This document shows positions 42,296 to 64,000 of a stretch of 64,000 nucleotides of DNA, piece by piece (the stretch's first letter is position 1; each line of letters begins with the position of its first letter). This DNA is from Candidatus Heimdallarchaeota archaeon (GTDB lineage: Archaea > Asgardarchaeota > Heimdallarchaeia > Heimdallarchaeales > Heimdallarchaeaceae): positions 32,001 through 96,000 of the forward strand of contig JAUVXV010000006.1 of assembly GCA_030603365.1 (NCBI GenBank), written 5' to 3'. The notes below the pieces were generated by a model. That model was given only the letters and a program-made list of their open reading frames with translations. It did no database searches and was not told where the DNA came from. A program made the translations under genes and the position numbers.

Positions 42296-42367
42296 GGAAA
42301 GAATCACTTAAAATATTTGATTCCATAGCTTTTAATAGTTTTAACATAACTATTATTCTAGTTCAAA

Positions 42368-42961: not shown

Positions 42962-43129
42962 TTAAGATATAAAAATCATAAATAAGTTTTGAAAATAAAC
43001 TAGTAAATTATTTATAGTAATGATAGTAACTTATTCTTTGATATCATAAATTAAATCTAAATCATGGAATATTTGAAGACTGATTTTTTATTAACTAGCT
43101 TTATTAGTGCTCATTGCTCTTAACTTGTT

Positions 43130-44880: not shown

Positions 44881-45130
44881 TTTTTCTTTACCTTTTTCTT
44901 TTTTTTGTTTTCGAAGTAGTATAAAACTTAGCCAAAAATATTTTTTTAAAACTCTTAATAATTGTTCTTGAAAATAAAAGAAAAGTAAGGTAAAATTATA
45001 ATGTTATGCTGATAGTAACTGCAAAATTACAATCTGCTTTTGTTGCTTCAGATGTTTCATCACTAATTTCAATTCTGTTGTTTTTTTTATTTCTAGAAGG
45101 GTTTATTAGCAATCATGAGAATGCATATAT

Positions 45131-46087: not shown

Positions 46088-46204
46088 TTTTTCTTTACCT
46101 TTTTCTTTTTTTTTGTTTTCGAAGTAGTACAAAACTTAGCCAAAAATATTTTTTTAAAAATCTTAATAAGTGTTCATGGTAATTAATGAAAGTAAGGTAA
46201 GAGT

Positions 46205-47296
46205 ATGAAGAAGCATGTATGTCTTTGTGTTTTGTTGATAATATTTGCAAATTACAATCTTATAGCTGTTTCCACTTATGCTAATAATCAAGAGGTGACG
46301 ATAACTAAAGTAGGAGAATTTGCAACCAATGCATTGTACTATCATATTGAAGTAATTGATGACATACTATACTTTACTGAATTTGATACAAAGAAATTTT
46401 GTTTGTTAGATGTACAAGATCCATCAAAACCCGTTTCATTAGCAAATTATTCTGTAACAGATGGACATGATTTCGAAATTAGGGGGGATATTGCTTATTT
46501 GAGTACATGGGAGTATGGGATAGAAATCACCGATATCTCGAATTCAACCAATCCAATAAAAATCAGTAATTACACAACAGGACCAATATCACATCTGAAT
46601 GTAATCGACAACTACATCTATGCAAGTCGTCACACTGAGAACAGATCTTATTATGAGATAATCGATGTAAGCAATCTTTTTGAACCTAAGTTAGTCAAAG
46701 AATTCTGTGAGGGACAGGGAGCTAAACCATTCATTGATAACAATTTAGCTCTCATATGTGTAAAGAATGTAACTTCGCTAGAGTGTTATTTTCGTTTATA
46801 CAATATTGAAGACCGTGAAAACCCTGAATTGGTTAGTGAGTATATTTCTAATGAAAATATATACTGCTATGACATCTTTTTAGAAAATGATTATGCCTAT
46901 TTTGCTTTAGCAGGTAAAGGGGTAATGATTATAGATTACAGTGACATCTATAACCCCATTTATGTGCACAGATTTGAAACTGGACATAATGTCTGGCGAT
47001 TGCATGTGGTTGAGGATATACTTTTCATAGCAAATGATGTTGCAGGAACAAAAATCATAGATGTTACAAGCAAAACCAATCCTATAGAACTAGCAAAATA
47101 TTATGATGGAGGATCAGCTTATAACTTGGATATGAAAGACAATCTCATCTTTGTTGCAGATGAGAATGATGCCATAGAAATTCTAGAAATTAAAGGATTA
47201 GAGATATTTGAAACATCATTTGTTTTATTGCATAGTTTGTTACTAATCCCTATTCTTATACTGCTTAAAAAAATACCAAAGAGTAAAAGGAAATAA
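46205..47296 (+). CDS. LVIVD-repeat beta-propeller surface protein
   Basis: Repeats such as GIEITDISNSTNP, GVMIIDYSDIYNP, GTKIIDVTSKTNP; C-terminal TM. Confidence 0.85.
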   Translation: MKKHVCLCVLLIIFANYNLIAVSTYANNQEVTITKVGEFATNALYYHIEVIDDILYFTEFDTKKFCLLDVQDPSKPVSLANYSVTDGHDFEIRGDIAYLSTWEYGIEITDISNSTNPIKISNYTTGPISHLNVIDNYIYASRHTENRSYYEIIDVSNLFEPKLVKEFCEGQGAKPFIDNNLALICVKNVTSLECYFRLYNIEDRENPELVSEYISNENIYCYDIFLENDYAYFALAGKGVMIIDYSDIYNPIYVHRFETGHNVWRLHVVEDILFIANDVAGTKIIDVTSKTNPIELAKYYDGGSAYNLDMKDNLIFVADENDAIEILEIKGLEIFETSFVLLHSLLLIPILILLKKIPKSKRK

Positions 47297-47368
47297 CAAA
47301 CAAGGTAGGCTAATGCAAGAAATTAGAATAAGATTTTAGTGATATTGAAAAAGAAAAAAAGAAAAAGA

Positions 47369-48943
47369 TCATACGTTCTTTAATCGTTTCTTAGTTATCA
47401 TAGAGAGAGGAACCAATGCTACAACAAACAAAGATAGTATGAATATGATCTGAATACCAGTTGATAACTCTGGAATTATTAAGGGTCCTGTGGGATAGGG
47501 GTCATTGTTATTAGCAGCACCATCAAGAGGATATGGAGGTATACCATTCCAATCTGACCACCAATTACCTTCTAACGTGATTGTATTAAACCAGATATTA
47601 TCTGTCCCATCGTCGTAACCTTGAGAAGTTCCTCCAAGATTGTTATCAGTTAAATAGTTGAGATACACCTCATTGTCAGAGGAGAAACCATTCAAGTAAA
47701 TTCCATAGTCTGCACAATTTTGAATAGTATTGTTCGTAATGAGACAAGAATCAGAAGATTGCAGATAGATACCCCAATGACTGCTAATGATACAAGTGTT
47801 ATTCATAATTGTGTTTCCAAAGCAACTCCATATATAGATGCTCAACCACACATTATTGTTGCAAGTATTATTGTTAACTATACAATTATCAGAAATAAAC
47901 AACCATAATCCATACCCACCATTATTATTACAGATATTGTTAGCAAATGTTGATCCTTGATCGTATACCGTCTCTAGTCCATCGTCAGAATTGTAACTAC
48001 AAGTATTGTTTACAACAGTACTGTAAGTGCAATCCTCAAGAATGATCCCATCAAAATTATTATTGCATGTATTATTCATGATCTCAGCATTGTCACACCA
48101 ATAAAGAAACATACCAGTTCTTGTATTTGATAGGTCTTGGTTGTATATAGTGGGTCTGTTACAGTAAATAAGGATGAGTTGACCATAATCAGGAGTTGTA
48201 AAGATAAGATCATCTGTATATGTATAATATCCTAAGATCTTCCCATTTACCCAGTTATTCTCAAAACTAAAGTTAAGGTAATTTGTTAGACTAATATCCT
48301 CGATATGAACACCACAATTGTAAAAAGCATTATTTGTAAGAGTAGAATTAGTGGAATGCCAAATAGTGATTCCACGACCACCACCATTATCACTAAGTGT
48401 GTTATTTATAATAATAGCACCGGGTGAGTAATATAAATTAATGCCATTAAAAGCATTGTTTGTCATTGTGCTATTTATGATTTTAACACTAGGAGAATAA
48501 TCTAGATATATGCCTTCCCAATTATTTTCATTAAGAGTAGTATTATAGATTGTAGCTGTTCCTGAAGTAACAGATTCAAAACTGATACCATATCCAACAG
48601 TTTCAATGTAACAATTACTGATAACAAAGTGTTTGGTTGTACCTTTTACGGATATACCATATGAGGTGGCTGTAATAATGTTGTAGCCAGTAATCATGTA
48701 AGGATCACTTCTTGTTCCAGTTCCAGAAAAACCATAGTCAGTAAAATTATTGTCAGATATTATTGTAAACGGAGCATGATCTAATAGAGCTTGAAATGAA
48801 GATGAAGATTCGTTGTGAACAACAGGAATTGCTAAGATAGAAGTTGAATTCTGATTAACTGAAAGAAAGAGTAGTGAGATAATAACTAGAAATACGATAC
48901 TTGTTTTTGAGAAATTATTTTTTTTATTCATTTTTAACCTCAA
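47369..48943 (-). CDS. Surface beta-helix (NosD/CASH) protein, paralogue of 34400
   Basis: Identical blocks NYLNFSFENNWVNGKILGYY and TITLEGNWWSDW; IPEL + TM + KKR. Confidence 0.88.
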   Translation of the reverse strand: MRLKMNKKNNFSKTSIVFLVIISLLFLSVNQNSTSILAIPVVHNESSSSFQALLDHAPFTIISDNNFTDYGFSGTGTRSDPYMITGYNIITATSYGISVKGTTKHFVISNCYIETVGYGISFESVTSGTATIYNTTLNENNWEGIYLDYSPSVKIINSTMTNNAFNGINLYYSPGAIIINNTLSDNGGGRGITIWHSTNSTLTNNAFYNCGVHIEDISLTNYLNFSFENNWVNGKILGYYTYTDDLIFTTPDYGQLILIYCNRPTIYNQDLSNTRTGMFLYWCDNAEIMNNTCNNNFDGIILEDCTYSTVVNNTCSYNSDDGLETVYDQGSTFANNICNNNGGYGLWLFISDNCIVNNNTCNNNVWLSIYIWSCFGNTIMNNTCIISSHWGIYLQSSDSCLITNNTIQNCADYGIYLNGFSSDNEVYLNYLTDNNLGGTSQGYDDGTDNIWFNTITLEGNWWSDWNGIPPYPLDGAANNNDPYPTGPLIIPELSTGIQIIFILSLFVVALVPLSMITKKRLKNV

Positions 48944-49227: not shown

Positions 49228-49809
49228 GTGAATATCATGAAACTCAATAAACTTTCAATGATAAAGTCTGGATATTTATTCAAAACATCCTTAAAAGAGG
49301 ATAAGGAAGGCAATATGAGAGTAATTCTTCCAAAGAATCTCTCCGATGATGGTGTGCTAGATCTTTCGGAACTAATCAAAATAAGACTTGAAGAAAAAGA
49401 AACAATTATGGGTTTAGAAGAAAATCAAATAGTCTTCAAAGCAAAAAGTACAAAACCTGCGGCAAGTTTGATTAAGATGAGAATAGAAAATACTCTTGCA
49501 TCACATCATTTCTTCATCATTTCATTAACATCAGAAGAGGTCATACCAGAATATGTATGCTGGTATCTAAACCAACAACCAGCCCAGAGCTATTTTCGAA
49601 AAAATGCAATGGGTTCAAGAGTACCTATAATAAATAAAAGAACTTTGAGTGAGATAGACATACCTATCATCGATATGAATTCTCAGGCAAAAATTGTGAA
49701 AATATATAACAATTTTATGAAAGAGAAAGGATTAACTAAAAACTTATTACAGCTAAAAGAGAAAACTATGTCTCAAATGCTACTAAACTTCCTACAAGGT
49801 GTAAAGTAA
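49228..49809 (+). CDS. Half-size HsdS-like (single TRD) protein
   Basis: PEYVCWYLNQ, GS....INK..L..IDIP...Q.KIV coiled tail. Confidence 0.72.
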   Translation: MNIMKLNKLSMIKSGYLFKTSLKEDKEGNMRVILPKNLSDDGVLDLSELIKIRLEEKETIMGLEENQIVFKAKSTKPAASLIKMRIENTLASHHFFIISLTSEEVIPEYVCWYLNQQPAQSYFRKNAMGSRVPIINKRTLSEIDIPIIDMNSQAKIVKIYNNFMKEKGLTKNLLQLKEKTMSQMLLNFLQGVK

Positions 49810-51281
49810 TGGTTTCAATGAAACAAGAGGAAATATTTCAATTGATTTTTTCGGTCATGGATAGAATAAGAGGTTTTGTAGATTGCGAGGAGTATAAAGA
49901 TATTATACTCCCCCTCTTATTTTACAAGCACATTAGTGATGTATGGATTAAAAATAAAGATGAGGAAACAGGAAAAAATGAAATAAAAGAAACAATTAAA
50001 ATTTCTGACAATAACTCATTTTATGATATATTTGCAAAAATAGAGAAGGACAACAAAGTAAGGATTTTAGAAAAAGCTCTTCTTCTAATAGAGAAAGACA
50101 ATCCAGATGTTCTAAAGGGTGTATTTGAGTACACAATTTTAGAAGGATTAAGGAGGTCAAGAGATTCGCAAATTGAAACTGAAGCAATAATTGGAGCAAT
50201 TGAAATAATAAACCAAATAGATTTGAAACATGATTATGTGAATCAAAAAGAACATGTCAGTATTGGTGAAGTATTTGAAAACGCATTAAACATATTTGCA
50301 TCTATTTCAAGATTTGGTGAGTTTATGACTCCCATTGAGATATCACATTTATTTTCCGAGATTATTAAACCAAAGAAAGGAGATCAAATTTATGACCCAG
50401 CAATTGGCACAGGTTCTCTTCTGCTTAGAGTTTTAGATCATAAGAGAACAAGAAATTTTGAGATTTTTGGTCAAGAGGTAAATAAGCGTAATTGGGCATT
50501 ATGTAAGATGAATATGATTATTCATGGACATCTTGATGCTAATATTGCTTTAGGTAATACTTTATTGAACCCACAGTTTCTTCAGGGAGATAGTATTCAG
50601 AAATTTGATATTGTTATATCAAACCCACCATTTTCAGTGAAAAATTGGAATTATGAACATTTGCAAAAGGACCCATATAATCGTTATAAAAGAGGCATAC
50701 CTCCAGGATCAAATGCAGATTATGCATTTATATCTCACATGATAGAATCATTGAAGGAGAAGCAAGGAAGAATGGGGATTTTGGTTTCACATGGTGTGCT
50801 GTTTAAACGAAGAAAAGAAGGTGAAATCAGGAGAAAAATAGTTGAGGAAAATCTGATTGAAGCTGTAATAGGACTACCAGAGAAGATGCTCTATGGAACG
50901 AGCATACCAGTAGCAATAGTTATCTTGAAAAAGCAGAAAGAAGACACAGATATTTTGTTTATTGACGCTAGTAAAGGATTTGAGGAGGGTAAAAGCTTGA
51001 ACACATTAAGAGTGCAAGATATTAAAAGAATTGCATCAACTTACACTGAGAAAAAGGAAATTGAAAACTACTCTCGTATTGTGAAGATTGAAGAGATTAT
51101 TACGAATGAATATAATCTAAATATTCGACGATATGTTGATAGTTCAGAAATAAAGGAAAAAATTGATATAAAGTGGGCTATAAAGGAAATTGAACAGCTA
51201 GAATATGAATTAAATCAGACTAGAAATAGAACAACAGAATTAATAAAAGAGTTATATAAAATAATCAAGGAGCGAGAATAA
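49809..51281 (+). CDS. hsdM: Type I R-M methyltransferase subunit 1
   Basis: GEFMTP, YDPAIGTG, NPPF, YNLNIRRYV. Confidence 0.92.
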   Translation: MVSMKQEEIFQLIFSVMDRIRGFVDCEEYKDIILPLLFYKHISDVWIKNKDEETGKNEIKETIKISDNNSFYDIFAKIEKDNKVRILEKALLLIEKDNPDVLKGVFEYTILEGLRRSRDSQIETEAIIGAIEIINQIDLKHDYVNQKEHVSIGEVFENALNIFASISRFGEFMTPIEISHLFSEIIKPKKGDQIYDPAIGTGSLLLRVLDHKRTRNFEIFGQEVNKRNWALCKMNMIIHGHLDANIALGNTLLNPQFLQGDSIQKFDIVISNPPFSVKNWNYEHLQKDPYNRYKRGIPPGSNADYAFISHMIESLKEKQGRMGILVSHGVLFKRRKEGEIRRKIVEENLIEAVIGLPEKMLYGTSIPVAIVILKKQKEDTDILFIDASKGFEEGKSLNTLRVQDIKRIASTYTEKKEIENYSRIVKIEEIITNEYNLNIRRYVDSSEIKEKIDIKWAIKEIEQLEYELNQTRNRTTELIKELYKIIKERE

Positions 51282-51342
51282 TGGTTCAGAAGGAATTAGA
51301 TTTTGAAAAAAAGAACAAAATAAAGAGAGAAGAGGAAAAAAA

Positions 51343-52815
51343 ATGTCAAAACTAGATTTAGATAAACTAAAACCATTCTTGTTGAGTGCAGCAAATATCC
51401 TAAGAGGAAGTATTGACTCAGCTGAGTATAAGCATTACATCTTTGGTTTATTGTTTCTTAAACGTCTATCTGATCAATTTGATGATGAAAGAAAGGAAGT
51501 TAAAGGAAATCCAGAAGATCCTGATAATTACCAATTTTTTGTTCCCCAACGAGCTAGATGGTCATCAATTAGAAAAGTTTCAGAAGGAATAGGAAACGCA
51601 ATTGACAAAGGATTTGAAGCCCTAGAAGAGGATAATCCAATTCTGGAAGGAGTTCTAACTCCTATACAATATGAAGACCCAAGAAAGTTAAATGATGAAG
51701 CATTGAATAAATTGATAGTACATTTCAGTAAAGAAGGATACAATCTTGCTAATTCCAATCTTGCGGAACCAGATATACTTGGAAGAGCCTATGAATACTT
51801 AATAGCTGAATTTGCAGACGATGCCGGAAAGAAAGGTGGAGAATTTTATACTCCCAATGGAGTTGTAAGATTATTAGTTAGAATCCTTAAACCTGAAGAA
51901 GGTATCCGTATTTGTGATCCTGCTTGTGGTAGTGGAGGGATGTTAATAGAATGTACTCATTACTTGAAAGAGCAGGATAAGAATCATATGAATATTTCAC
52001 TTTTTGGTCAAGAAAAGAACCTTAACACCTGGGCAATTGCGAAAATGAATCTTCTTTTACATGGAATTCTAGATGCAAGAATTGAAAGAGGAGATACAAT
52101 GTCTGAACCTAAACTTGTTGAAGATAGTTTTTTAATGCTCTTTGATATAGTAATAGCAAATCCCATGTGGAATCAGAAAGAATGGAGTAGAGAGTTGTTT
52201 GAAGCTGGAGATCCATATGGGAGAGCTAAATATGGTGTTCCTTCAAAAAGTTCAGGAGACTGGATGTGGATTCAGCATATGTTAGCAACACTGAAATTTG
52301 ATGGCAGATTAGGTGTAGTTCTTGATAACGGAGCATTATTCAGAGGAGCTAAAGAGGGGAAAATAAGAAAAGGAATAATTGAAGATGATCTAATTGAAGG
52401 AATTATTGCTTTACCTGCTAACTTATTCATGAATACTGGATCGCCAGGTTGTTTAATAATTTTAAACAAACAAAAAGACAAAATATTAAGAAATAAAATC
52501 TTCTTTATTCATGCGGAAAATGAGTATGAAGAAGGAAAAGCACAGAATTTTCTAAGAGAACCACATATCAATAAAATTGCAGAAACATATCACAAGAAGA
52601 ATGTTAAAGAAAAATTCTCAGATTTGATAGATATAGAAGAAATAAAAGAAAATGATTACAATCTAAATGTCTCAAGATATGTTGATATCTTACCAGAAGA
52701 AGAACTAATTGATCTAGAACAGGTTTTGAAATCTTTAACAGAGATAAAACAAGAAAGAGAGAAACTAGAAGAGGAATTTCATAAAAATATGGTGGAACTA
52801 GGATATGAAAAGTAG
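51343..52815 (+). CDS. hsdM: Type I R-M methyltransferase subunit 2 (NPMW motif IV)
   Basis: GEFYTP, DPACGSGG, ANPMWNQ, YNLNVSRYV. Confidence 0.94.
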   Translation: MSKLDLDKLKPFLLSAANILRGSIDSAEYKHYIFGLLFLKRLSDQFDDERKEVKGNPEDPDNYQFFVPQRARWSSIRKVSEGIGNAIDKGFEALEEDNPILEGVLTPIQYEDPRKLNDEALNKLIVHFSKEGYNLANSNLAEPDILGRAYEYLIAEFADDAGKKGGEFYTPNGVVRLLVRILKPEEGIRICDPACGSGGMLIECTHYLKEQDKNHMNISLFGQEKNLNTWAIAKMNLLLHGILDARIERGDTMSEPKLVEDSFLMLFDIVIANPMWNQKEWSRELFEAGDPYGRAKYGVPSKSSGDWMWIQHMLATLKFDGRLGVVLDNGALFRGAKEGKIRKGIIEDDLIEGIIALPANLFMNTGSPGCLIILNKQKDKILRNKIFFIHAENEYEEGKAQNFLREPHINKIAETYHKKNVKEKFSDLIDIEEIKENDYNLNVSRYVDILPEEELIDLEQVLKSLTEIKQEREKLEEEFHKNMVELGYEK

Positions 52816-54079
52816 TTTCATTAACATAGAAATTCCAAAGGAATGGCAAGTCAAGAGAATCAAAGATGTCTGCATTATTAATTCTGAGAATTTAAACCTC
52901 GATAAACTAAATGATTTTGATGAAATTTGCTACATAGATATTTCTAGTATAGATACTCAAAACTACCGAATACAAAAATACCAAAAAATACCAAAATCAA
53001 CTTTACCGAGTAGAGCTAGGAGAATAACAAAGAAAAATAACATAATTATTTCAACAGTGAGACCATATCTAAAAGCAACTGCTAAGATTGAAGCCAAACA
53101 CGATTATTTTGTGTGTTCAACTGGATTTGCAGTACTAGAAGCTAAAAATCAAATTGACCATGATTTTCTTTTTCAATGGGTTCTAGGTGAGAAATTTGTT
53201 AATTATTTAATATCTAATATGGTTGGTTCGAACTATCCAGCTGTAAATACTAAGGATATTGAAGACGGTCCTGTAATATTACCTCCTTATTCTGAACAGC
53301 AAATTATTTCCTCTATTCTCTCCAATGTTGACTCCATCATCCACCAAACTCAACAACTCATCAATAATTTGCAGCTCTTGAAGAAAGGATTGATGCAACA
53401 GCTCTTCTCTCAAGGAATAGGGCATAAGGAGTTTCAAGATACGAAACAAGGAAGGATACCTAAAGAGTGGGAAGTTGTGAAACTCGAACAATTAATTGAA
53501 GTAAAAAGTGGTAAAAGACTTCCCAAAGGTGAAAAATTTTCTAAAATACAAACTAGTTATCCATATATAAGAGTTCTAGATTTCAAAGATGGAACAATCA
53601 ATCTTAATAATTTAGAATATTTAACCCCTCAACTAAAGAAGATTTTGAATAAATATACGATTTCATCTGAGGATGTTTATATCTCAATTGCAGGCTCAAT
53701 TGGGATTGTTGGTCTGGTTCCAAATGAACTAAATAATGCTAATCTTACAGAAAATGCAGCTAATCTATCAATTAAAGAAAAGAAAAAATTGACTAAGGAG
53801 TTTCTGTACTATTACCTTGATTCAAGCATTGGACAAAAAGAAATTCGACTCAGGAAAACTATAACAACATTACCAAAATTAGCCTTTAAAAGAATAGAAA
53901 AAATTCCAATCGTCTTACCATCCATTCATGAACAAAAACAATTAACCTCTTTTTTGATAAATTTAGATCGAATCATAGAAGAAGAAATAGTTAATCTAAA
54001 TGAACTTATGAAAATAAAACAGGGGCTTATGCAAAATCTACTCACTGGGAAGAAGAGAGTTCCGATATCATTAACATAA
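52805..54079 (+). CDS. hsdS: Type I R-M specificity subunit (two TRDs)
   Basis: IPKEW twice, PP..EQ..I, K.GLMQ.L twice. Confidence 0.95.
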   Translation: MKSSFINIEIPKEWQVKRIKDVCIINSENLNLDKLNDFDEICYIDISSIDTQNYRIQKYQKIPKSTLPSRARRITKKNNIIISTVRPYLKATAKIEAKHDYFVCSTGFAVLEAKNQIDHDFLFQWVLGEKFVNYLISNMVGSNYPAVNTKDIEDGPVILPPYSEQQIISSILSNVDSIIHQTQQLINNLQLLKKGLMQQLFSQGIGHKEFQDTKQGRIPKEWEVVKLEQLIEVKSGKRLPKGEKFSKIQTSYPYIRVLDFKDGTINLNNLEYLTPQLKKILNKYTISSEDVYISIAGSIGIVGLVPNELNNANLTENAANLSIKEKKKLTKEFLYYYLDSSIGQKEIRLRKTITTLPKLAFKRIEKIPIVLPSIHEQKQLTSFLINLDRIIEEEIVNLNELMKIKQGLMQNLLTGKKRVPISLT

Positions 54080-54211
54080 TATCTTATTTTGAAGGTTCAG
54101 CAATATTATTACTTGAGAATCTTAATAGCAATGCAAAATCTTACAAAACTTAAAATAGAGATATAAGATTTAAGTAAAATGTTAATTGATTAAGAAAATG
54201 CTGGTGATTTA

Positions 54212-57200
54212 GTGGATTTAGTCAAATGGAATGAAAAAAATGAATCAGAAGAGCCTGCACTAAAACTTCTAGAACAACTAGGATATCTAAGAAGGTTAGC
54301 TGATGAACTCACTAATTTATCATCAGAAGCTGAAAGAACTTCACTTAGGCAAGTAATTCTTTTAGAAACTCTTAAGCAAAAAATGAAGGATCTGAATCCT
54401 TGGATAGATGACACCAATATTAAGAATATAATTAGAGATTTAACTATTGTTTCTACATCCAGTCATACTGAATCCAATGAGCTAATCTGGCAATATTTCT
54501 CTAAGAAAGATAAGCTCTTTGTTGATCAAGACTTCAAAGACGGCAAAGGTCGTCGCAAGAGAGGAGTCACGTTAATTGATTGGGATAATCCAGAGAACAA
54601 TGATTTCACTGTTACTGATCAATTCAAAGTCAATGCTCCTAAAGGCAATCGTATTCCTGATATTGTTGTTTTCATTAATGGTCTACCTTTAATTGTCATC
54701 GAGTGTAAGAGTCCTATAATTACTAATCCTCTCACTCAAGCCATTCGTCAAGTACGAGAATATCAAAAAACAATTCCCAAACTCTTTCATTACAATCAAA
54801 TTATCATTGTTACTTCTGGACAATCTGCTAGATATGGTGTTATTGGTAATTCTTATGAAGAATACAAATCTTGGAAAGAACCTTATCCTATCAATATCTC
54901 AGAACTAGAAGAGATTGTTAAGAAGACAGGTAGGAAAAATCCTTCTCCTACTCCTCAAGATATCACTCTTTACGGTTTGTTGGAAAAACGAAATCTCCTA
55001 GATCTCATTCGTAATTTCATTATTTACGAAACTAGACATGGAAAGAAAGTAAAGAAAATAGCTCGATATCAGCAATTCCGAGCTGTTAACAAAACTGTGA
55101 ACAGAATACTTACTGAGAAAGATGTTCATCAAAGAGGTGGGACAATCTGGCACACTCAAGGTTCAGGTAAATCCCTTACTATGCTCTTTACTGCTATAAA
55201 GCTTAAAAGAGAAAAATCTCTTATGAATCCTCTTCTTGCCTTCGTTACTGATAGGATAGATCTTGTCAGACAACTCAGAGATACTTTCGATAATTGTGGT
55301 TTTTCAAATCCACAAAAAGCTAAGAATGTTGATCATCTGCAGGAATTAGTCAAAACAGGACAGGGGATTACTATTTTTACTACTATCCAGAAATTCCATA
55401 CTCGAGATGCTGATAGACGAACAGGCATTTCTAGAACTGGGATGGTTTTTCCTGAATTAAACAGTGATGAAAATATTATTGTTCTTGTTGATGAAGCTCA
55501 TCGTTCTCAATACAAGTACTTTGCAATTAATCTGAGAAAAAGCATGCCTAATGCAGCTTATATTGCTTATACTGGAACACCTTTAGCCAAAAATGAGAAA
55601 AACGAAAGAATGACAGTTGGTAAAGGAAAAACTGTTCGAACCTTTGGCTCATTCATAGATATTTATGATATCCGTCAATCTGTTGAAGATGAAGCAACTG
55701 TCAAGATTCTATACGAAAGTCGATTGTCTGATCTTCGCTTGGAAGGAGAAACCATTGATGAAATCTTCGAGAGAGTATTTGCAAATTTAACAGTTGCAGA
55801 ACGCGAGAAGATCAAGAATAAGTACGCAAACGTTGATGCTATACTTGCAGCTGAAGAACGAATTAAGAGAATAACTCTAGATATAGTTGAACATTACACA
55901 CAGCATATTTTACCTAATGACTTCAAAGCTCAGGTTGTGGTAAATAGTAGAGAACTAGCTGTTAGATACAAGAAATACCTTGAACGATTTAATGCCCCTG
56001 AATCTGTTGTGATAATATCTGCTAATCCTCGATATGATGAGGAGTTAAAGAAGAAATATGAAGTTGATTTTGTAACTGATAAGTCTAAACAAGATTTAAT
56101 GATTGACCGATTTAAAGATCCTGAAGACTCATTGAAAATTCTTGTTGTTTGCGATATGCTAATCACTGGTTTTGATGCCCCAATCGAGCAAGTCATGTAC
56201 TTGGATAAATCTTTAAGAGAACACACTCTGCTTCAAGCTATCGCAAGGGTTAACAGAACCTATGAAAATAAAACTCATGGTCTAATCGTTGATTACTATG
56301 GTGTCTCTAACAATCTTGAAGAGGCTTTAGAAATCTTTGATAAACCAGATATAGAAGGTTTCATGAAAGATATTAAGACCGAATTACCCAAACTTGAGCA
56401 ATATCATCGCAAAGCTATAAGCCACTTTGAGGGATTTGATTTAACTGATTTGAACAATTGTGTTTTAGTTTTGGAACCTGAGGATACTAGGGCTAGTTTC
56501 CATCATGATTGTAAGAAATTTGCACAAACCCTAGATATAGTACTACCTGATCCTGCTGGAGAGAAGTACTTGCCTGATCTTAAGAAACTTGGAGAGATAG
56601 TTATAGCTGCTCGTAATCGTTTTAGAGAAGAAAGTCTTGATATTGTAGGTTTTGGTGGTAAAGTACGAGAGATTATAGATGAACACATTCGCGCAACCAA
56701 GATAATCCAACTAGTTGAGCCTGTTTCTATTTTATCTGACAAATTCAATGAAGTTCTTGAAGCTCTGAAAGATGAAAAAGCTGTCGCAAGTGAGATGGAA
56801 CATGCCATAAAACATCAAATCACGATTAAGGTTATAGAAGACCCGGCATTTTATACGAGTTTAAGAAAAAGACTAGAAGAGATAATCAAAGAGTATAAAG
56901 AGCATCGAATAAGTCTTGCTGAAAAGATAAACAAACTCAAAGCAATTGCTCAAGATATAAAAGCTAGACCTGATGTAGCAAAATTTCTAGGTTTGAATAC
57001 AGCTGAGATGGCCTTCTATAATATTTTCAAGAGAGAGTTAGAAGAAATAGAAATAAGTGATAGCAGAGAGATAGTCAGGTTTACTTATGAGACCCTGGAG
57101 AGTATAGAACCCCTAGTCTCAATCGTTGATTGGCATCTCAAATCAGATATTCTAAGACAAATTAGAAGAGCCTGTAAGCAAAAGTTCTTTGAACTTCAAG

Positions 57201-57286
57201 AGGAATTTCCAATTCCATCAGAACTACATCAAGCTCTTTCGCAACAGATTGTTGAATTAGCTAAAGTCCACTTTGTTGCTAGTTAA
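54212..57286 (+). CDS. hsdR: Type I R-M restriction subunit
   Basis: PDIVVFINGLPLIVIECK, HTQGSGKS, DEAHR, YTGTP, TGFDAP, QAIARVNR. Confidence 0.96.
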   Translation: MDLVKWNEKNESEEPALKLLEQLGYLRRLADELTNLSSEAERTSLRQVILLETLKQKMKDLNPWIDDTNIKNIIRDLTIVSTSSHTESNELIWQYFSKKDKLFVDQDFKDGKGRRKRGVTLIDWDNPENNDFTVTDQFKVNAPKGNRIPDIVVFINGLPLIVIECKSPIITNPLTQAIRQVREYQKTIPKLFHYNQIIIVTSGQSARYGVIGNSYEEYKSWKEPYPINISELEEIVKKTGRKNPSPTPQDITLYGLLEKRNLLDLIRNFIIYETRHGKKVKKIARYQQFRAVNKTVNRILTEKDVHQRGGTIWHTQGSGKSLTMLFTAIKLKREKSLMNPLLAFVTDRIDLVRQLRDTFDNCGFSNPQKAKNVDHLQELVKTGQGITIFTTIQKFHTRDADRRTGISRTGMVFPELNSDENIIVLVDEAHRSQYKYFAINLRKSMPNAAYIAYTGTPLAKNEKNERMTVGKGKTVRTFGSFIDIYDIRQSVEDEATVKILYESRLSDLRLEGETIDEIFERVFANLTVAEREKIKNKYANVDAILAAEERIKRITLDIVEHYTQHILPNDFKAQVVVNSRELAVRYKKYLERFNAPESVVIISANPRYDEELKKKYEVDFVTDKSKQDLMIDRFKDPEDSLKILVVCDMLITGFDAPIEQVMYLDKSLREHTLLQAIARVNRTYENKTHGLIVDYYGVSNNLEEALEIFDKPDIEGFMKDIKTELPKLEQYHRKAISHFEGFDLTDLNNCVLVLEPEDTRASFHHDCKKFAQTLDIVLPDPAGEKYLPDLKKLGEIVIAARNRFREESLDIVGFGGKVREIIDEHIRATKIIQLVEPVSILSDKFNEVLEALKDEKAVASEMEHAIKHQITIKVIEDPAFYTSLRKRLEEIIKEYKEHRISLAEKINKLKAIAQDIKARPDVAKFLGLNTAEMAFYNIFKRELEEIEISDSREIVRFTYETLESIEPLVSIVDWHLKSDILRQIRRACKQKFFELQEEFPIPSELHQALSQQIVELAKVHFVAS

Positions 57287-57324
57287 TATATGAAAGTGTC
57301 TATATACTATTAAGAGGAACTGCC

Positions 57325-58071
57325 ATGCCTAAGACTTCTCCAAAAATCAGTTTCGGTGAAACGAGTTTTGCTTATTCTATCATTAGAACAAATAGAACTA
57401 CAATAGCTATCATTGTTGAACCTGATGGTAGTGTTATAGTTCGAGCTCCTTATGATCTATCTGAAGAAACCGTTGAAGAAAAAGTAAGAGAGAAGAGGAG
57501 ATGGGTAGCAGAAAAACTCACTAAAACTGATGAAATAGTTAAACCTGTACCTAAGAGAAGAGAATTAGTAAGTGGGGAAAAGATCAAACTCAAGGACAAA
57601 CTAATCAGATTGAAAATTCACCATTTCGATAAAAGAAGAACTGTAGTAGAATTAGACAAAAATACTCTTCATATCTATATTAATAAGGATTTGAATGAAT
57701 TAGAAAGAAAAGAGGAATTGAAGAAAGTTCTCTTGAAATGGTATAAAGAACAAGCAAAAGATATCATTTCTACTAGAGTTGATAAATTCTCAAAATCATT
57801 TGATCTTAAACCAAACGGGATAGTTATTAGAAGTCAACAACTGAGATGGGGGAGCTGTACAAAGAATAACATATTGAACTTCAATTGGCGTATTGTAATG
57901 GCGCCTATTTCAGCAATAGATTATATTGTTGTTCATGAATTGTGTCATCTCAAAGAACCTCTTCATTCAATTGAATTTTGGAATTTGCTAGAATCACACT
58001 TCCCTGAATACAATAAATGGAAAGAGTGGTTAAGAATAAATGGTTTAACTCTTGATTTAAAATTTGAATAA
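57325..58071 (+). CDS. DUF45/YgjP-like (M48/SprT-like) zinc metallo-hydrolase associated with type I R-M
   Basis: RWGSC, DYIVVHELCHL, H...FW. Confidence 0.9.
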   Translation: MPKTSPKISFGETSFAYSIIRTNRTTIAIIVEPDGSVIVRAPYDLSEETVEEKVREKRRWVAEKLTKTDEIVKPVPKRRELVSGEKIKLKDKLIRLKIHHFDKRRTVVELDKNTLHIYINKDLNELERKEELKKVLLKWYKEQAKDIISTRVDKFSKSFDLKPNGIVIRSQQLRWGSCTKNNILNFNWRIVMAPISAIDYIVVHELCHLKEPLHSIEFWNLLESHFPEYNKWKEWLRINGLTLDLKFE

Positions 58072-58148
58072 TAGATGAAAACTAAGAAATTATTCTTAAT
58101 TTCTACTATATTTTTATAAACCTGAAAACAATATTAACTCTGATTAAA

Positions 58149-58694
58149 GTGTGTTTCAAACAAATTAAAAATATCTTGAAAAAGAAGAATAAACCAAGTA
58201 TTTATGATTACAATCTTACAGATAAGGAATACTATGGTAAGAGTAAAAAATCGTATGAAAAAGATAAATATCAAGATCACCTAATTGATCAATATCGGAT
58301 ATTAACTGATAAAGCTGATAGAATAAGTGATAAAAGAGCAGTTACAAATGGTTTTTTTCTAACACTAAACACAATTATTGGAACAGCCAGCATAGTTCTA
58401 ATTGACATAATTAGTAATTCTTTATTCATAATACCTCTAAGTGTAATTGGCATACTGTTCTCATTGCTTTGGTTTGGTATGATAAGGAATTATAAGAAAT
58501 TAAATACAGCAAAGTTCAATGTAATCAATAAGATTGAAGAGAAATTACCTATAAAAGGCTTTTATGCTGAATGGGAAATTTTAAAGAAAAAGATGAAATA
58601 TAAAGGATTATCAGAATTTGAAAAATGGATTCCTTGGTTCATTATACTAATGTATTGTGTGTTAATAGGATTCTCTATTTATTCATTTGTATAA
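58149..58694 (+). CDS. Small TM protein, putative pore-forming defence effector
   Basis: QY....ADRISDKRAVTNGFFLTLNT, 2+1 TM, YKKLNTAKF.VI..IEEKLP. Resembles the TIR-associated family annotated as RipA-like octameric membrane protein (from memory). Confidence 0.65.
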   Translation: MCFKQIKNILKKKNKPSIYDYNLTDKEYYGKSKKSYEKDKYQDHLIDQYRILTDKADRISDKRAVTNGFFLTLNTIIGTASIVLIDIISNSLFIIPLSVIGILFSLLWFGMIRNYKKLNTAKFNVINKIEEKLPIKGFYAEWEILKKKMKYKGLSEFEKWIPWFIILMYCVLIGFSIYSFV

Positions 58695-58750
58695 TTGAAT
58701 CTCATAAATAGCTAGAAAGTTTTTTATTTACAGTATCTATTAGCTAAATT

Positions 58751-59152
58751 ATGGCAATGATTTATGTTTGCTATGAGAGTGGAGATATAAAATATAGAAA
58801 TGATTTCGCTAGCATGATGCTTAATCAAAATAATCAAATTACAGATATACCTGTTACAGATAAAGAAAATAAACGTCCAGAAGGTCCTGAAGCTGTTAAG
58901 AGATATATTTTAAGCTTAATGAGAGATTGTGCTGCAGTAGCTGTATTAGTTGGTAGAAACACACACAATGCTCCGGTTGTCCGATGGGAACTTGAAGTGG
59001 CAAATTCTCAAAACAAGAAAATACTCGCGATTAAAATTCCTACTACTTCAGGAGGACTTCCTCCTTTATTAAAAACGATTGGAATTCAAACAATTGAGTG
59101 GGATCCACAACTGATTGAGGAAGAATTATCCAGATTATTCGGTAGAGAATAG
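58751..59152 (+). CDS. ThsB-like TIR domain protein (DUF1863/MTH538 type)
   Basis: IYVCY, VLVGRNT, VRWELEVA (catalytic Glu), KKILAI. Confidence 0.82.
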   Translation: MAMIYVCYESGDIKYRNDFASMMLNQNNQITDIPVTDKENKRPEGPEAVKRYILSLMRDCAAVAVLVGRNTHNAPVVRWELEVANSQNKKILAIKIPTTSGGLPPLLKTIGIQTIEWDPQLIEEELSRLFGRE

Positions 59153-59423
59153 AATAAATGTGATTGATATGATGGATAAGAAATGTATGTTTCGAAAACC
59201 TGAATCGCCTAAATGTCAAGAAGAAGGGTTCAATTGTTTAGAACTGAAAATGTTTCATCCTCTAACTGAGAGAAATTCAAAACAAATTTGGTTTTTATGT
59301 GATGAGCACCTAGATAAATTTCTTAAGACAGATGGGAAGGATTGGATTAAATGGAAGAAGGAGGAGAAAAACAAAATGAGCATTAGCTATGTATTGGATT
59401 TCAAAATTAATTATCTACTCTAG
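59115..59423 (+). CDS. Small Cys/His-rich hypothetical protein
   Basis: C-x7-C-x6-C ... CDEH; fills the gap within the operon; start uncertain. Confidence 0.5.
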   Translation: MRKNYPDYSVENRINVIDMMDKKCMFRKPESPKCQEEGFNCLELKMFHPLTERNSKQIWFLCDEHLDKFLKTDGKDWIKWKKEEKNKMSISYVLDFKINYLL

Positions 59424-59444
59424 AGAATCCAACTGAATAATTAG

Positions 59445-60044
59445 GTGCAAAGAATGGAAAAAGTAGTAGTTTTGATGTCAGGTGGCATAGATTCTTTTCT
59501 AATGTGTAAAATTCTTTCTGAAAATTATGAACTATATCCCCTTTTTGTGGATTATGGGCATTTAGCAGCTAATCAAGAACAAAAAACTGTTTTGAAACAA
59601 ATAAAATTTCTCAATCTTAATTCAGCAAAATTGGTTAAAATCCCTGACTTAGGACTTAAAAATAGTTTAACTTTAGAAGAAGAATATAAAGATGATTTTT
59701 ATCCAGGAAGGAATCTTCTCTTGCTTATAATAGCTGCACAATTCGCCATAGGAATGAATATAGAAAGGATTGCTTTGGGTATAATAAGGAGCGAAAGAGT
59801 TTTTTCAGATTCCACTTCGTTTTTCATTCAAAGAGCTGAACAATTAATTTCTGATAGCGTTAATAAACAAATGACTATTTTCACTCCAATTTCTGATTTA
59901 CAAAAGAATGAAGTTGTAGAGTTAGCTAAAGAGCTAGAACTACCTCTTAGTCATTCCTACTCTTGTCAAAAAGGAGATTTGAAAGAATGTGGCAAATGTC
60001 TTTCATGTCTGGAATTAGATAAAGCTATTTTAGAAAATAAATGA
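59445..60044 (+). CDS. queC: QueC-family PP-loop ATPase (Cap9/QatC-like context)
   Basis: MSGGIDS, VDYG, YPGRN, SYSC-x7-CGKCLSC zinc site. Confidence 0.9.
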   Translation: MQRMEKVVVLMSGGIDSFLMCKILSENYELYPLFVDYGHLAANQEQKTVLKQIKFLNLNSAKLVKIPDLGLKNSLTLEEEYKDDFYPGRNLLLLIIAAQFAIGMNIERIALGIIRSERVFSDSTSFFIQRAEQLISDSVNKQMTIFTPISDLQKNEVVELAKELELPLSHSYSCQKGDLKECGKCLSCLELDKAILENK

Positions 60045-60120
60045 TTTTCATTCTTTTGGACAGAAAGATTTTAATTTTATAATTAGTTATATTATTAAAC
60101 AAAAAGGATGTGGAGGATTA

Positions 60121-61017
60121 ATGAAAATACTTAAGCAATTCGGATATGGGAGAATAGTTGAATTGAAAATTAATAATCTTCAGAGATACACTCCAATGTT
60201 TATTCCTGCTTTATCGAGTGCAAGTAGAAAAAACGATTTCTTAAATGCTAAAAGATGGGTAAAAAGAGTAAAACCTGTGGATTTCTTAATTTCAGCTTAT
60301 GATTACATAGAAGATTTTAAGGATCTAAAGATTAAGAAAGATTCTTTTGTAACATTAGACAGTGGGGGTTATGAGCTCAGAAACATCATAAAACCAAAAC
60401 AATGGACTCTTGATTCTTATTTAGAGATAATTGATAAAATCCATCCAGATATGATTATATCCCTTGATCATCCTGAAAACAACTTTACTCAATCAATTAG
60501 CTGTTTTGAGCAAATAAAAGAAAGCTATTCTAACAATTCTTATCTACAATTCGTAATTGCTGAAACTAAAAAAGAAAAGATCCCAGATTCAGTAATAAAT
60601 ACTTTACAACTGATTGAACTAGATGTTATTGGGATTCCAGAAGTGAATCTAGGAAAAAATCTAGAAGAAAGATTACAAAGTATTCAGTCTATAGTTAAGA
60701 TTCTTAGCTCTATGCAGAATCCAACCCTTCTACATATCTTAGGCTGCAGTGATCCTGAGATGATTAAGAAATATGCATTATCTGGAGCAGATATATTTGA
60801 TGGGCTAGGTTGGTATAGACAAGTTGTTGATATTTCAGATAATGAAAACTTTAAATTCACTAATTTCGCAAATTTGGATAGTGATTGTGAATGTAAAGCA
60901 TGTAAATTAACACTAACTGAAGACTATGAAGAAAAGGTTTTTGCTCACAACTACTTAGCTTATTATGCTTTGATGGAACAAATAAGAGAGATGATTATCA
61001 AAGGAAGTGAAATCTAA
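60121..61017 (+). CDS. tRNA-guanine transglycosylase-like protein (Cap10/DpdA-like)
   Basis: TPMFIP, LDSGGY, SLD, LHILG, GADIFD, CECKAC...HN zinc site. Confidence 0.85.
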   Translation: MKILKQFGYGRIVELKINNLQRYTPMFIPALSSASRKNDFLNAKRWVKRVKPVDFLISAYDYIEDFKDLKIKKDSFVTLDSGGYELRNIIKPKQWTLDSYLEIIDKIHPDMIISLDHPENNFTQSISCFEQIKESYSNNSYLQFVIAETKKEKIPDSVINTLQLIELDVIGIPEVNLGKNLEERLQSIQSIVKILSSMQNPTLLHILGCSDPEMIKKYALSGADIFDGLGWYRQVVDISDNENFKFTNFANLDSDCECKACKLTLTEDYEEKVFAHNYLAYYALMEQIREMIIKGSEI

Positions 61018-61538
61018 TGGGTGGAGGAAGCAGTGGAGTATATAATCCACCAAGTAGATCGGCGACATATGGAAAAGATTTAAAGAATCAAGCAAATGAA
61101 AGTATAAGAAACACAGAAATGAGATTGCAAAGGAGACTTACTGATTTTTCCTATGAACCCCGTAATGTGTTCATCAGCTTTCATACTGTGGATGAAATGC
61201 AAGTAAAGCTCTTAAGATACCAAGCAAAGGATGATAGATTCGATTTTGCTTTTCGGGATTATTCAGTTCAAGAACCTTTCTCAGATAAATGGAAAACGAG
61301 AGTAAAAGAGAGAATAAAGAGAAGTGATTATACTATTTGCTTGATTGGTGAAGATACACATTCTAGAGAAGCTGTTAATTGGGAATTGAATCAAAGCTAT
61401 AAAATGGATAAGAAGGTAGTTGGTGTTAGAATTTATCGTGATGCAAAACACAAAATACCAGAACCAATAAAGAGAAATAAATCAAAAGTAGTTGACTGGA
61501 ATCTTGGAGATATCATGGAGCAATTATCTGAAGAATAA
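61017..61538 (+). CDS. ThsB-like TIR protein with Gly-rich N-terminal extension
   Basis: MGGGSSG start; RNVFISF, DYSV, CLIG..T, VNWEL; TAATG coupling to the TGT gene. Confidence 0.88.
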   Translation: MGGGSSGVYNPPSRSATYGKDLKNQANESIRNTEMRLQRRLTDFSYEPRNVFISFHTVDEMQVKLLRYQAKDDRFDFAFRDYSVQEPFSDKWKTRVKERIKRSDYTICLIGEDTHSREAVNWELNQSYKMDKKVVGVRIYRDAKHKIPEPIKRNKSKVVDWNLGDIMEQLSEE

Positions 61539-61572
61539 AATTCAATAAGAAAAAAGATGATTCACAAACTTA

Positions 61573-62922
61573 TCAAAAATGTAAGTTTAAATCATCAAAA
61601 TTGGCAAGATATAGATTTTCCTTTGTTTGTTTGAGTATGCCCTCCTTAGTAAAAGAATTTAATACATTATAATAGGTTGAATAATTCAGAATATTTATTC
61701 CGAAAGGAAAGCTTGCTGCTATAATTTCAGATACTGAAGCTTTTTTAACAGTATATAAATAAAATAAGATAAACTCTTCTACAGTTTGTGTCAAATTACT
61801 CTGAATATGATGCCATTGAGGAACATCATCTTCTGAAGGAATTTGAAGAGCTTTGATCTCTTTTCTTACTACCATTGACCAAAAGTTTTTCACTTGTTCA
61901 TCTGTTGGAAAACCATTGTGAAAATCTTGAAAACAATCTTTCACATGGAGAAACATAAAATAGTAAGCATTTATAGCTCTTTTAATTTCGTAAGCCATAC
62001 TCGTGTATTCTTCCCAAGATGCAGATGAAACATTAGATTCATGAAATAGTGCTCCTCTAACTTTAAACCATCTATCAATATTTCTAAGATAAAAGATTAC
62101 TGTTTTCTCAACATCTAAGGGGATTGTTTTATATTTTTCTTTATAGAGCTCTATGAGTTTTTTAAATTGTATAATTACTTTATCCTTGATTGGCATATAG
62201 GTATTATCTATCGCATCTAGAACATTGTTGTGCACCTGATTGAGCACTTTCTGTTCTGCTTGTATTTCTCCTTCCTTTATTATTTTCTCTATTGCTTGCT
62301 TAGAAAGTTCTTTCATTTTTTCTCGAAAAATACACCAAATACTTGTAGGAGCTTCTATATTTTTTAGCTTAGTATTAATAAAAAGTGATTCTAATGCTAT
62401 GACAATATTCTCAAAAAATTCTATTGAGTGTTTCTCATTATCTAGTGCAATACGGTATTTTCTTAATGATCTAAGAAATCTTTGTATAGATTCATTATCC
62501 TCTTCTTCACTTAATTTATCAATTTTTGTTGTTAGAGTGTGATACAAAGTATGATAATCTTGTGGAAAAACCCTTTGACTTCTATCATAAGAAATACGAA
62601 AACCACCTTCATTTTCTTTTCTTACTAGTGGCATAAAAACTTGAAATGAAGAGGAAAAACCTAGAGCAAAGGCATCCATCAAAGGTGAAAAACTTTTCAT
62701 CACTTTCTTTGTTCTTTCATCACCTGGGATGAAATCTTCTACCATCATTGTTTCTTCATCTTTTTTCAATTTCATCTTAAAACTAATATTGCGTTGAGGT
62801 CTTTCTTCAGTTTGGTATACAATAACTTCAATTTTGGAGAAATCATAAAAGCCTTCAGGAGGTAAATTACCAAAAGGATAACTTCTGAACTCACCTATCA
62901 AAGGACGTTTCTCATCAGACAT
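61573..62922 (-). CDS. ApeA/MAE_28990-like HEPN protein
   Basis: IVIALESLF followed by the R-x4-H motif VRGALFH; possible C-terminal wHTH. Confidence 0.65.
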   Translation of the reverse strand: MSDEKRPLIGEFRSYPFGNLPPEGFYDFSKIEVIVYQTEERPQRNISFKMKLKKDEETMMVEDFIPGDERTKKVMKSFSPLMDAFALGFSSSFQVFMPLVRKENEGGFRISYDRSQRVFPQDYHTLYHTLTTKIDKLSEEEDNESIQRFLRSLRKYRIALDNEKHSIEFFENIVIALESLFINTKLKNIEAPTSIWCIFREKMKELSKQAIEKIIKEGEIQAEQKVLNQVHNNVLDAIDNTYMPIKDKVIIQFKKLIELYKEKYKTIPLDVEKTVIFYLRNIDRWFKVRGALFHESNVSSASWEEYTSMAYEIKRAINAYYFMFLHVKDCFQDFHNGFPTDEQVKNFWSMVVRKEIKALQIPSEDDVPQWHHIQSNLTQTVEEFILFYLYTVKKASVSEIIAASFPFGINILNYSTYYNVLNSFTKEGILKQTKENLYLANFDDLNLHF

Positions 62923-63568
62923 AGTAACTAGAGTAAATATAGAAATATAAATCTACTCTCTAGCAATCTTTTTAGAATAATGTTTTACACCCTATTATCT
63001 TCCATTTTGGTTATGAATTAAGAATATGATGAACTTTCAGATTCTGATAAACTATAAAAAGAATAGGTCCACTTGTTCAAGATTATCTAAAAACCAGTCT
63101 AGAATCGCTAATTGATGAAATTGAGAATATAATCAGTAATTCTTGTTATGGTTATGATGATATTGCTAAAGCTATTGCAGAAAAAATTGATGGAAAAACT
63201 ATATCTTCTAAACAGTGGTCAACTCTTCTGGACCTATTAATAGTTCAGTAAATGGTGCTGATCCAGATATGGGAGTTTATGAGGAATTGGAAAGTAAGGA
63301 TTATATTTTTGAAGGTTTGAAAATAGCTTATGTTATTATAATCAGTGGTAATATTACAATCCTCATGTAAGCACCTATTCATGTAGAAGTGAAGATTAAT
63401 AATGTAGTGATTAAGAAATGAGCGGTAGTACCTTGAAGAGAATTCCAGAACTATTTATATTTATAAAATCAAATGCAAACTAATTTATCAACATGTTATG
63501 ATTCTTACTTTGGTGCAGAAAAGAGCATTTTTCAACAATGGAGACTTAACAAAATTGGAAAAAACTGC

Positions 63569-64000
63569 TCACAAGCTATTAAATGTTTGAATTAGAATAT
63601 TTAGAATGAATTCCAAATTTTTTTTGTACTTTTTCATATCATCTTTAGTTAAATCGACTTCTATTGTATGAGCACTACTATTTCCTGCCTCTCGATATTT
63701 GTTAAGTTCTTTAATTAAATCATTGTTCAGGGGAGGAAAAACATCAAAATCCTTTTCTTTAATTTTTGAATCTAAATTCTTTATTATAGTGTTAAGTGGT
63801 TTAAACTGTTTTCTATCCGTATTAAAATACAAATTAACATTATCCTTTGTTTTAGAACCATATTTTTTTCTTAAAATTCCAATTACAAGATTTTCAATCA
63901 ATTTTCTTAGAAGAATTAAAACTGCTGAATATATTTCATATGTATATGCCAAATTTATGTCTTTTTGTAGCTTACGATAGAAATCGCTTGGATAAGTATG
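63569..64000 (-). CDS. C-terminal part of a DUF4145-like HEPN protein, truncated by the window edge
   Basis: Frame is open to 64000 (HTYPSDFYRKLQKDINLAY...); LLRKLIE and R...NSSAH. Confidence 0.6.
   Translation of the reverse strand, partial: HTYPSDFYRKLQKDINLAYTYEIYSAVLILLRKLIENLVIGILRKKYGSKTKDNVNLYFNTDRKQFKPLNTIIKNLDSKIKEKDFDVFPPLNNDLIKELNKYREAGNSSAHTIEVDLTKDDMKKYKKNLEFILNILIQTFNSL

Follow-up and report, generated by a model that had tools for sequence, protein, structure and literature searches.

A six-gene cassette at positions 58149-61538 of a 64,000-nucleotide stretch of DNA from a Candidatus Heimdallarchaeota archaeon (the whole stretch is called the window below, and cassette positions are counted within it) is best read, with a probability of roughly 0.7, as a Thoeris-type TIR defence system regulated like a cyclic oligonucleotide-based antiphage signalling system (CBASS) of type IV. 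One of its two TIR proteins, TIR2, would be licensed by N-terminal deazaguanylation and would signal to a membrane protein of the 8xMP family. We favour this reading because of the conserved gene order, the kinship of the QueC-like and tRNA-guanine transglycosylase-like (TGT) proteins with Cap9 and Cap10, the Gly-rich tail of TIR2, a model of the TGT-TIR2 complex and the host's genes for 7-carboxy-7-deazaguanine (CDG), and also because the same mechanism was predicted by another group independently. Yirmiya et al. (bioRxiv 10.64898/2025.12.03.692087, December 2025; Fig. 6G, S10B) predicted Thoeris operons with cap9, cap10 and cap11 and used AlphaFold 3 to model the ThsB of Pseudomonadales SP163 with its Cap10 and Cap9; these operons were not among the 30 that they tested. 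A preliminary description of the window knew of no described system with this composition, a statement that the preprint overturns.

The cassette

Reading of the open reading frames (ORFs), together with profile searches, gave six genes on one strand, as first described:

58149-58694, + strand: 8xMP (PF24838) membrane protein; Pfam E 1.6e-35; GTG start uncertain
58751-59152, + strand: TIR1, ThsB-type; PF08937, 1.2e-11; WELE motif; no N-terminal tail; catalytic Glu80
59169-59423, + strand: Cys/His protein, 84 amino acids; probable single zinc finger; C6, C16, C44 and H47 invariant
59454-60044, + strand: Cap9-like QueC, 196 amino acids; profile E 1.1e-31; alternative GTG start at 59445
60121-61017, + strand: Cap10-like TGT; profile E 6.3e-10
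61017-61163, + strand: N-terminal extension of TIR2 (about residues 1-49); MGGGSS Gly tail, then a helix, residues 16-37
61017-61538, + strand: TIR2, tailed ThsB-type; PF08937, 2e-16; WELN motif; catalytic Glu123

The stop codon of TGT (TAA, 61015-61017) overlaps the ATG of TIR2 (61017) as TAATG, the coupling already noted in the preliminary description, and this overlap fixes the start of TIR2, whose N-terminus is thus MGGGSS. Among the ORFs of 57325-64000, which the absence scan covered, there was no match for a CD-NTase, ThsA, QatA/D or DpdB-K, in agreement with what had been said of the locus. Likewise, no ORF for Cap11 (OGG-like) was found in the cassette or in its six copies described below.

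QueC and TGT as relatives of Cap9 and Cap10

Comparisons of sequence support the earlier proposal that QueC and TGT are Cap9/Cap10-like and stand outside the archaeosine enzymes of the host. The best PDB match of QueC is Cap9 (9nto, 2.4e-14) and the only one of TGT is Cap10 (9ntn); the PADLOC models match QueC at 1.2e-33 and TGT at 2.2e-31, far above QatC or DpdA, and QueC scores 88.9 bits, below the housekeeping QueC cut-off of 150.3 bits. QueC carries SGGIDS (9-14), R86-N87, F117-x-D119 and a four-Cys zinc motif from C171, so that all the Cap9 residues compared (SxGxDS, R86, Y115, D117, Zn) are kept except for a Tyr to Phe change. Similarly, TGT keeps five of the six named Cap10 residues (D73, S74, D122, K154, H226 and D248), its D80, S81, D116, H205 and D227 aligning with Cap10 D73, S74, D122, H226 and D248. 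It also retains a CxCxxC/H zinc site (C256...H276), present in 8/8 members of its clade and in 34/34 other 8xMP-linked loci, in 1/19 of the remaining, mostly bacterial, loci and in 0/3 CBASS proteins.

Phylogenetic trees agree with this placement. A 98/95 branch separates 22 housekeeping QueCs from the cassette QueC, which joins other TIR-linked QueCs at 96/90. For TGT, a 100/100 branch divides the tRNA enzymes from a group that holds the cassette protein, CBASS Cap10 and other TIR-linked TGTs. This second tree has a three-way fork and does not order the direction of transfer between the CBASS and TIR versions. The genome modelled in Fig. S10B of the preprint (Pseudomonadales SP163) is our locus L064, whose TIR is 35% identical to TIR2 and whose QueC and TGT lie in the 96/90 and 100/100 clades of the cassette, respectively; since the two are the same, the system of the window is homologous to the published prediction.

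The host appears able to make the CDG precursor with genes outside the cassette, which supports the suggestion of a host-derived deazaguanine. A housekeeping queC, queD, a DUF366-like gene, mptA and queE are clustered on contig C1 (140564-144196; motifs and context served to identify queE and mptA); arcTGT- and ArcS-sized genes are found on C14. Thus, queD and queE are indeed missing from the cassette locus, as previously reported, but they are present elsewhere in the genome, with mptA and the housekeeping queC. The C1 cluster (C1:140564-144731 of genome G000) directly adjoins a ubiquitin E2-like gene.

These data bear on the idea that the QueC and TGT of the cassette are surplus archaeosine enzymes of the housekeeping kind that happen to adjoin a Thoeris system. 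Their Pfam families are common to the archaeosine pathway, and there are weak matches to ArcS and TgtA profiles. Nevertheless, a separate set of queC, arcTGT and ArcS-sized genes is present in the host (C1, C14), the trees separate the cassette enzymes, and the linkage to TIR is conserved across phyla; the idea is already contradicted, and we give it practically no credence.

Conservation and distribution

The order TIR1-small protein-QueC-TGT-TIR2 was found in six other assemblies (L001, L003, L004, L005, L007 and L184), which supply the nearest homologues of TGT, with proteins 37-66% identical to those of the window. Because this order recurs there, always with an 8xMP gene, the six-gene grouping is more than chance, and the combination is conserved elsewhere, as the preliminary description required of a real system. 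In 2/7 cassettes (the window and L001) the 8xMP gene lies upstream on the same strand as the others; in the remaining 5/7 it is downstream and convergent. No CD-NTase was found in the six copies, while true CBASS loci have a SMODS or CD-NTase-sized gene at the corresponding position. QueC is intact in 7/7 cassettes (P-loop, RN, FxD and Zn motifs).

The cassette is rare in the class of its host: 3/83 genomes, which are incomplete, gave a match, and one of these is only a 119-amino-acid remnant of TGT (L180:1498-1857, in G003, of the family of the host), 57% identical to the TGT of the window and with no partner genes nearby. The remnant suggests loss of the cassette, and the patchy spread, together with the adjoining type I restriction-modification (RM) locus, is in keeping with a defence cassette that is mobile.

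Searching the genome contigs with a single TGT sequence gave no match, and alignment-based searches were needed to find homologues. A search with the TIR2 alignment yielded 159 further loci; after removal of duplicates, 58 had QueC and TGT upstream of a TIR, and in 49 of these an OGG-like Cap11 gene intervened (L064 and L073 were labelled 'TGT only' in the neighbourhood count, owing to ORF overlap, though both have QueC). TGT, QueC and TIR are therefore found together in dozens of archaeal and bacterial loci. Two-TIR layouts recur, since several bacterial loci have a second TIR before TGT, fused to it in L224. That contig, from a viral collection, encodes the TIR-TGT fusion at 4476-5858, and genes for an OGG-like protein, QueC and an MGGSS-tailed TIR come after it; the fusion adjoins a relaxase-like gene and a convergent TIR/membrane-protein pair, and the contig resembles an integrative element.

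The tail of TIR2 and its predicted partner

In type IV CBASS, Cap9 deazaguanylates CD-NTases at Gly2 of an M(G/S)G(G/S)GG tail (covalent NDG, +176 Da, the formation of which E. coli supported), and Cap10 binds the modified tail; reversal is a proposal, made for Cap11 (Wassarman et al., 10.1101/2025.04.06.647259). TIR2 has a comparable architecture, as its 49-residue extension begins with MGGGSS and continues in a helix resembling the CD-NTase tail, which agrees with the previous suggestion that a TIR is the likely deazaguanine acceptor. Gly2 is the predicted acceptor and residues 16-37 the predicted docking helix. The TIR2 proteins of L001, L003 and L004 begin with MGGGGG, and 68/120 homologues among the matches listed begin with MGGG. 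Moreover, among loci with enough upstream DNA, the TIR start is Gly-rich in 74/87 with a TGT-type neighbour vs 1/24 without. The tail often begins at TTG or GTG (many loci, e.g., L107, L109, L124 and L144), and gene callers may consequently extend or truncate it, hiding the motif.

Binding of TGT to TIR2 is supported by a model of the complex. The mark applied is reached by 58/80 solved and 2/110 mismatched pairs; TGT with TIR2 scored 0.82, and the best of three controls 0.00. The runs share at least 81% of contacts, the pLDDT of the partner is at least 69, and the modelled interface is the tail helix of TIR2 (residues 16-37), echoing helix 1 of CdnD.

TIR2 is the predicted signal synthase. 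Its Glu column holds Glu in 145/147 related TIRs, the other two being gapped in the alignment, and Glu80 of TIR1 aligns with E123 of TIR2 in the window and in 5/5 homologues. The best PDB match of TIR2 is 8fz9, which resembles a type VII (cyclic ADP-ribose, cADPR) TIR in Table S1 of the preprint. By eye, the core of TIR2 aligns gapless with another TIR of that table, the type IV (N7-cADPR) protein of Pseudomonas sp. 1-7, the identity being roughly 30%. These likenesses are leads on signal identity only.

It could instead be argued that QueC and TGT write 7-deazaguanine into DNA or RNA, or that TGT senses deazaguanine-modified viral DNA, with the TIRs responding. The ancestral zinc site kept by TGT, which supports nucleic-acid binding in tRNA TGTs and is absent from CBASS Cap10, speaks for this, as does a weak DpdA match (E 0.004), and even in CBASS the target of the base-linked enzyme could be a nucleic acid. 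On the other hand, TGT groups with Cap10, there is no dpdB-K, the conserved Gly tail and the predicted protein partner point to protein modification, and in the model the helix of the zinc site serves to bind TIR. We consider this explanation very improbable. Removal of the mark by TGT, or sensing of viral DNA, had been put forward in the preliminary description; nothing supports either. CBASS Cap10 binds the modified tail, and reversal was proposed only for Cap11, not found here.

Proposed mechanism and its weighing

In the licensing model that we prefer, CDG would be made by the housekeeping MptA, QueD and QueE, whose genes are observed in the host. TIR2 would then lose Met1, and the Cap9-like QueC, a predicted writer of N-terminal deazaguanine, would adenylate CDG and join it to Gly2, as suggested by the mechanism of Cap9, the conserved residues and the tail. 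The Cap10-like TGT would bind the tail helix, as modelled, with the base in its pocket, so that TIR2 would be primed but quiet. Upon infection, the catalytic Asp227 of TGT might transfer or release the base-linked TIR onto a target, leading to clustering and activation. Finally, by analogy with Thoeris, TIR2 would turn NAD+ into an ADP-ribose-type signal that opens an 8xMP oligomer, producing cell death or arrest. For TIR1, the most likely role is that of a second sensor that works independently of the modification and acts on the same effector; the zinc-finger protein may be an accessory of TIR1. Both roles are weakly inferred.

Several observations weigh against this model. The association of tail and partner is inflated by kinship, since there are only three independent pairs, nearly always concordant (sign test p 0.25). 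MGGGSS agrees with M(G/S)G(G/S)GG up to position 4 and not beyond, and TIR2 begins with MNSGG in L005 (8922) and L007 (2574), where QueC and TGT are intact and Gly2 should not be exposed; these starts argue that the modification is not universal. The position of Cap10 K154, which reads the base, is hydrophobic in 8/8 members of the clade (I146 in the window). The model of the complex may owe its pass to likeness to the solved Cap10-CdnD complex, and in this ligand-free model the Gly tip lies outside the confident contacts. Additionally, the orientation of the 8xMP gene varies among cassettes, and we know of no 8xMP protein shown to respond to a TIR signal. In the literature searched, no experiment on any TIR-Cap9/10 operon was found, including any follow-up of the preprint.

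Some of these points would suit a TGT that is a mere scaffold clamping the tail helix of TIR2 while the modification decays, with TIR1 and TIR2 signalling to 8xMP unaided by the mark, which is apparently what happens in relatives lacking QueC. In favour of such a scaffold are the missing Cap11, the loss of the K154 equivalent, the MNSGG starts of two cassettes and the second TGT copies of three, and there are 34 related loci with a TGT-fold protein and no QueC. Against it stand the intact QueC of 7/7 cassettes, the conservation of D80, D116, H205 and D227 of TGT in 8/8 proteins and the Gly2 of the tail in the window; we judge it unlikely.

The second TGT-like copies are full length and follow TIR2 (L003:7700-8638, L004:4310-5248 and L184:2917-3855). 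Those of L003 and L004 have intact catalytic residues and form their own branch; a heterodimer like QTRT1/QTRT2 is possible.

The 8xMP protein and the Cys/His protein

The 8xMP protein is the predicted effector. Its hydropathy profile indicates about three transmembrane helices, with peaks at about 69-113 and 159-181. No solved relative was found by sequence or profile, and a search of the literature on 8xMP/PF24838 found nothing relevant. When 41 8xMP members were scanned against Pfam, all 41 matched only PF24838 consistently, and none of the verified Thoeris effector families (SIR2, Macro-TM, SLOG, caspase, DUF2270, DUF6650, SLATT, CMP hydrolase, TIR-SLOG, ion channel and HIT) was matched. 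In an Atlas comparison, the likeness to a SLATT-named cluster was at the level of features only. The family may belong to the unverified '3TM' class in the preprint's Table S1, for which it is a candidate and not an established member.

The 8xMP gene is present in 37/53 loci with QueC, TGT and TIR. Archaeal loci use 8xMP and most bacterial loci do not: in most archaeal loci lacking TIR1 it directly follows the tailed TIR, and bacteria substitute other effectors. This distribution is relevant to a further alternative, by which TIR2, activated via the QueC/TGT switch, would itself kill by NAD+ depletion; 8xMP, paired with TIR1, would then be a separate effector or a backup. The position and strand of 8xMP do change between cassettes, it adjoins TIR1 in the window and in L001, and NAD-depleting effectors exist among bacterial TIRs. 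However, both TIRs are ThsB-type, the placement of 8xMP right after the tailed TIR is the usual Thoeris pattern, and in bacteria it is other effectors that take its place; a killing TIR2 thus seems quite improbable.

In all loci read, the Cys/His gene has TIR1 on one side and QueC on the other; one further locus has TIR1 upstream and its downstream gene cut off. Thirteen homologues were found, and the four metal-type residues are invariant in an alignment of eight. A model of the protein (pLDDT 79) gave no clear fold match (best Z 4.4, with weak B-box/ZZ-type rows), which does not show a new fold, and the best match in a viral library had an E of 0.03.

QueC-less relatives and the possible origin of a proposed switch

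In 34 related loci without QueC or Cap11, a protein of 267-334 amino acids lies upstream of an MGGG-tailed TIR, usually with 8xMP. These loci (L009:2513-3313, L018:6180-7067, L049:6014-6988 and about 30 more) are common in DPANN, Bathyarchaeia and methanogens. The protein has the TGT fold (hhalign 94%; model pLDDT 92; Foldseek E 4e-11; TM-score 0.73-0.80) and is degenerate, without the DSGG motif and the catalytic Asp. Its partner tails have Arg at position 6 in 26/34 cases and at 6 or 7 in 31/34, compared with 0/60 QueC-linked tails. A full-length QueC was not found in 4/5 of the QueC-less genomes examined, some of which are small or incomplete. The class may represent a modification-free version, and it may comprise only a few lineages. 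A TIR tree (128 columns, with open forks) did not place the clade of the window as an intermediate toward it.

A tentative extension, with the odds well against it, is that the Gly tail and TGT-fold clamp form a portable immune-enzyme switch, of which three states exist. The full state would have QueC, TGT and Cap11. The Asgard state would lack Cap11, have a changed pocket and add the zinc-finger protein and a second TIR that is not modified, giving two inputs to one pore. In the modification-free state QueC would be gone, and an Arg near position 6 of the TIR tail would mimic deazaguanine in the degenerate TGT-fold protein. Because archaeal versions keep the ancestral zinc site, the switch possibly began with TIR enzymes and reached CBASS later. 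If so, comparing the three states would expose the trigger of type IV CBASS.

Genomic neighbourhood

A type I RM locus (49228-58071; hsdS/hsdM/hsdM/hsdS/hsdR/YgjP) lies directly upstream; it encodes two HsdM, two HsdS-like proteins (one half-size, 193 amino acids), HsdR and a YgjP metallopeptidase. Downstream, at 61573-62922 on the minus strand and convergent on TIR2, there is a 449-amino-acid orphan with an Rx4H (HEPN-like) motif, which was excluded from the cassette for want of a homologue in related loci. A second Rx4H family, unrelated to it, adjoins 8xMP in L003, L004 and L184. Farther upstream, 34400-48943 encodes a series of proteins, secreted or on the surface, that carry PEF-like motifs at the C-terminus together with membrane anchors, among them the paralogous pairs 34400-35959 with 47369-48943 and 43918-44880 with 45131-46087. 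A promoter and terminator scan, using bacterial consensus sequences on an archaeal host, remained at chance level.

Comparison with known systems

Two known systems were rejected as homes for the cassette. QatABCD (PMC13279940) has a QatC of about 400 amino acids with TxT for YxD, in contrast to the 196-amino-acid QueC with FxD in the window; the window is without QatA and QatD, and Qat is without TGT or TIR. The QatC profile gave 25.6 bits against a cut-off of 280, with no match for QatA/D. For the Dpd DNA-modification island, DpdA reached 15.8 bits against a cut-off of 200, and the other dpd genes were not found nearby.

Among Thoeris types I-XI, the nearest in logic are those with membrane effectors, types V (DUF2270) and VII (SLATT). 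They share with the cassette one or more ThsB TIRs with a catalytic Glu and a small oligomeric membrane protein, and several TIRs can share one effector. The difference is that the PF24838 effector fits none of the verified effector families.

With type IV CBASS, the cassette shares a QueC-like writer, a TGT-like reader, a signalling enzyme with a Gly-rich tail and helix, dependence on CDG from the host, the QueC-TGT-enzyme gene order and an optional Cap11. It differs in having a TIR in place of the CD-NTase, so that the signal is expected to derive from NAD+, and an 8xMP effector, and also in the zinc site of TGT (8/8 in the clade of the window vs 0/3 in CBASS). If our reading is correct, TIR enzymes too are controlled by N-terminal deazaguanylation, in an Asgard archaeon, whereas to date the CD-NTase of type IV CBASS is the only enzyme on which this modification has been shown; TIR is a signalling domain common to plant and animal immunity. 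The 8xMP family would gain a function as a Thoeris effector. Furthermore, a small TIR with a product readable by liquid chromatography-mass spectrometry, together with natural variants lacking Cap11 or QueC, offers a good route to the question of the Cap10 target.

The closest relative is the Thoeris system with Cap9/10/11 of Yirmiya et al., with which the cassette shares a ThsB-type TIR, an effector, Cap9, Cap10 and predicted TIR-Cap10 binding. The window is without the Cap11 that 49/58 related loci keep, and for this reason the cassette is filed as a variant and not as a plain member. It also adds an untailed TIR and an orphan Cys/His gene, in an Asgard host, has the order QueC-TGT-TIR instead of TGT-Cap11-QueC-TIR, and encodes a TGT that keeps the zinc site and is without the K154/His residue. 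What is new here is a rare, Heimdallarchaeia-type variant of a predicted design whose core idea is already in the preprint, distinguished by the absence of Cap11, the extra untailed TIR, the orphan Cys/His protein, the retained TGT zinc site and the lost K154 equivalent. Its value is that of a distinct, testable variant, and not of a new kind of system.

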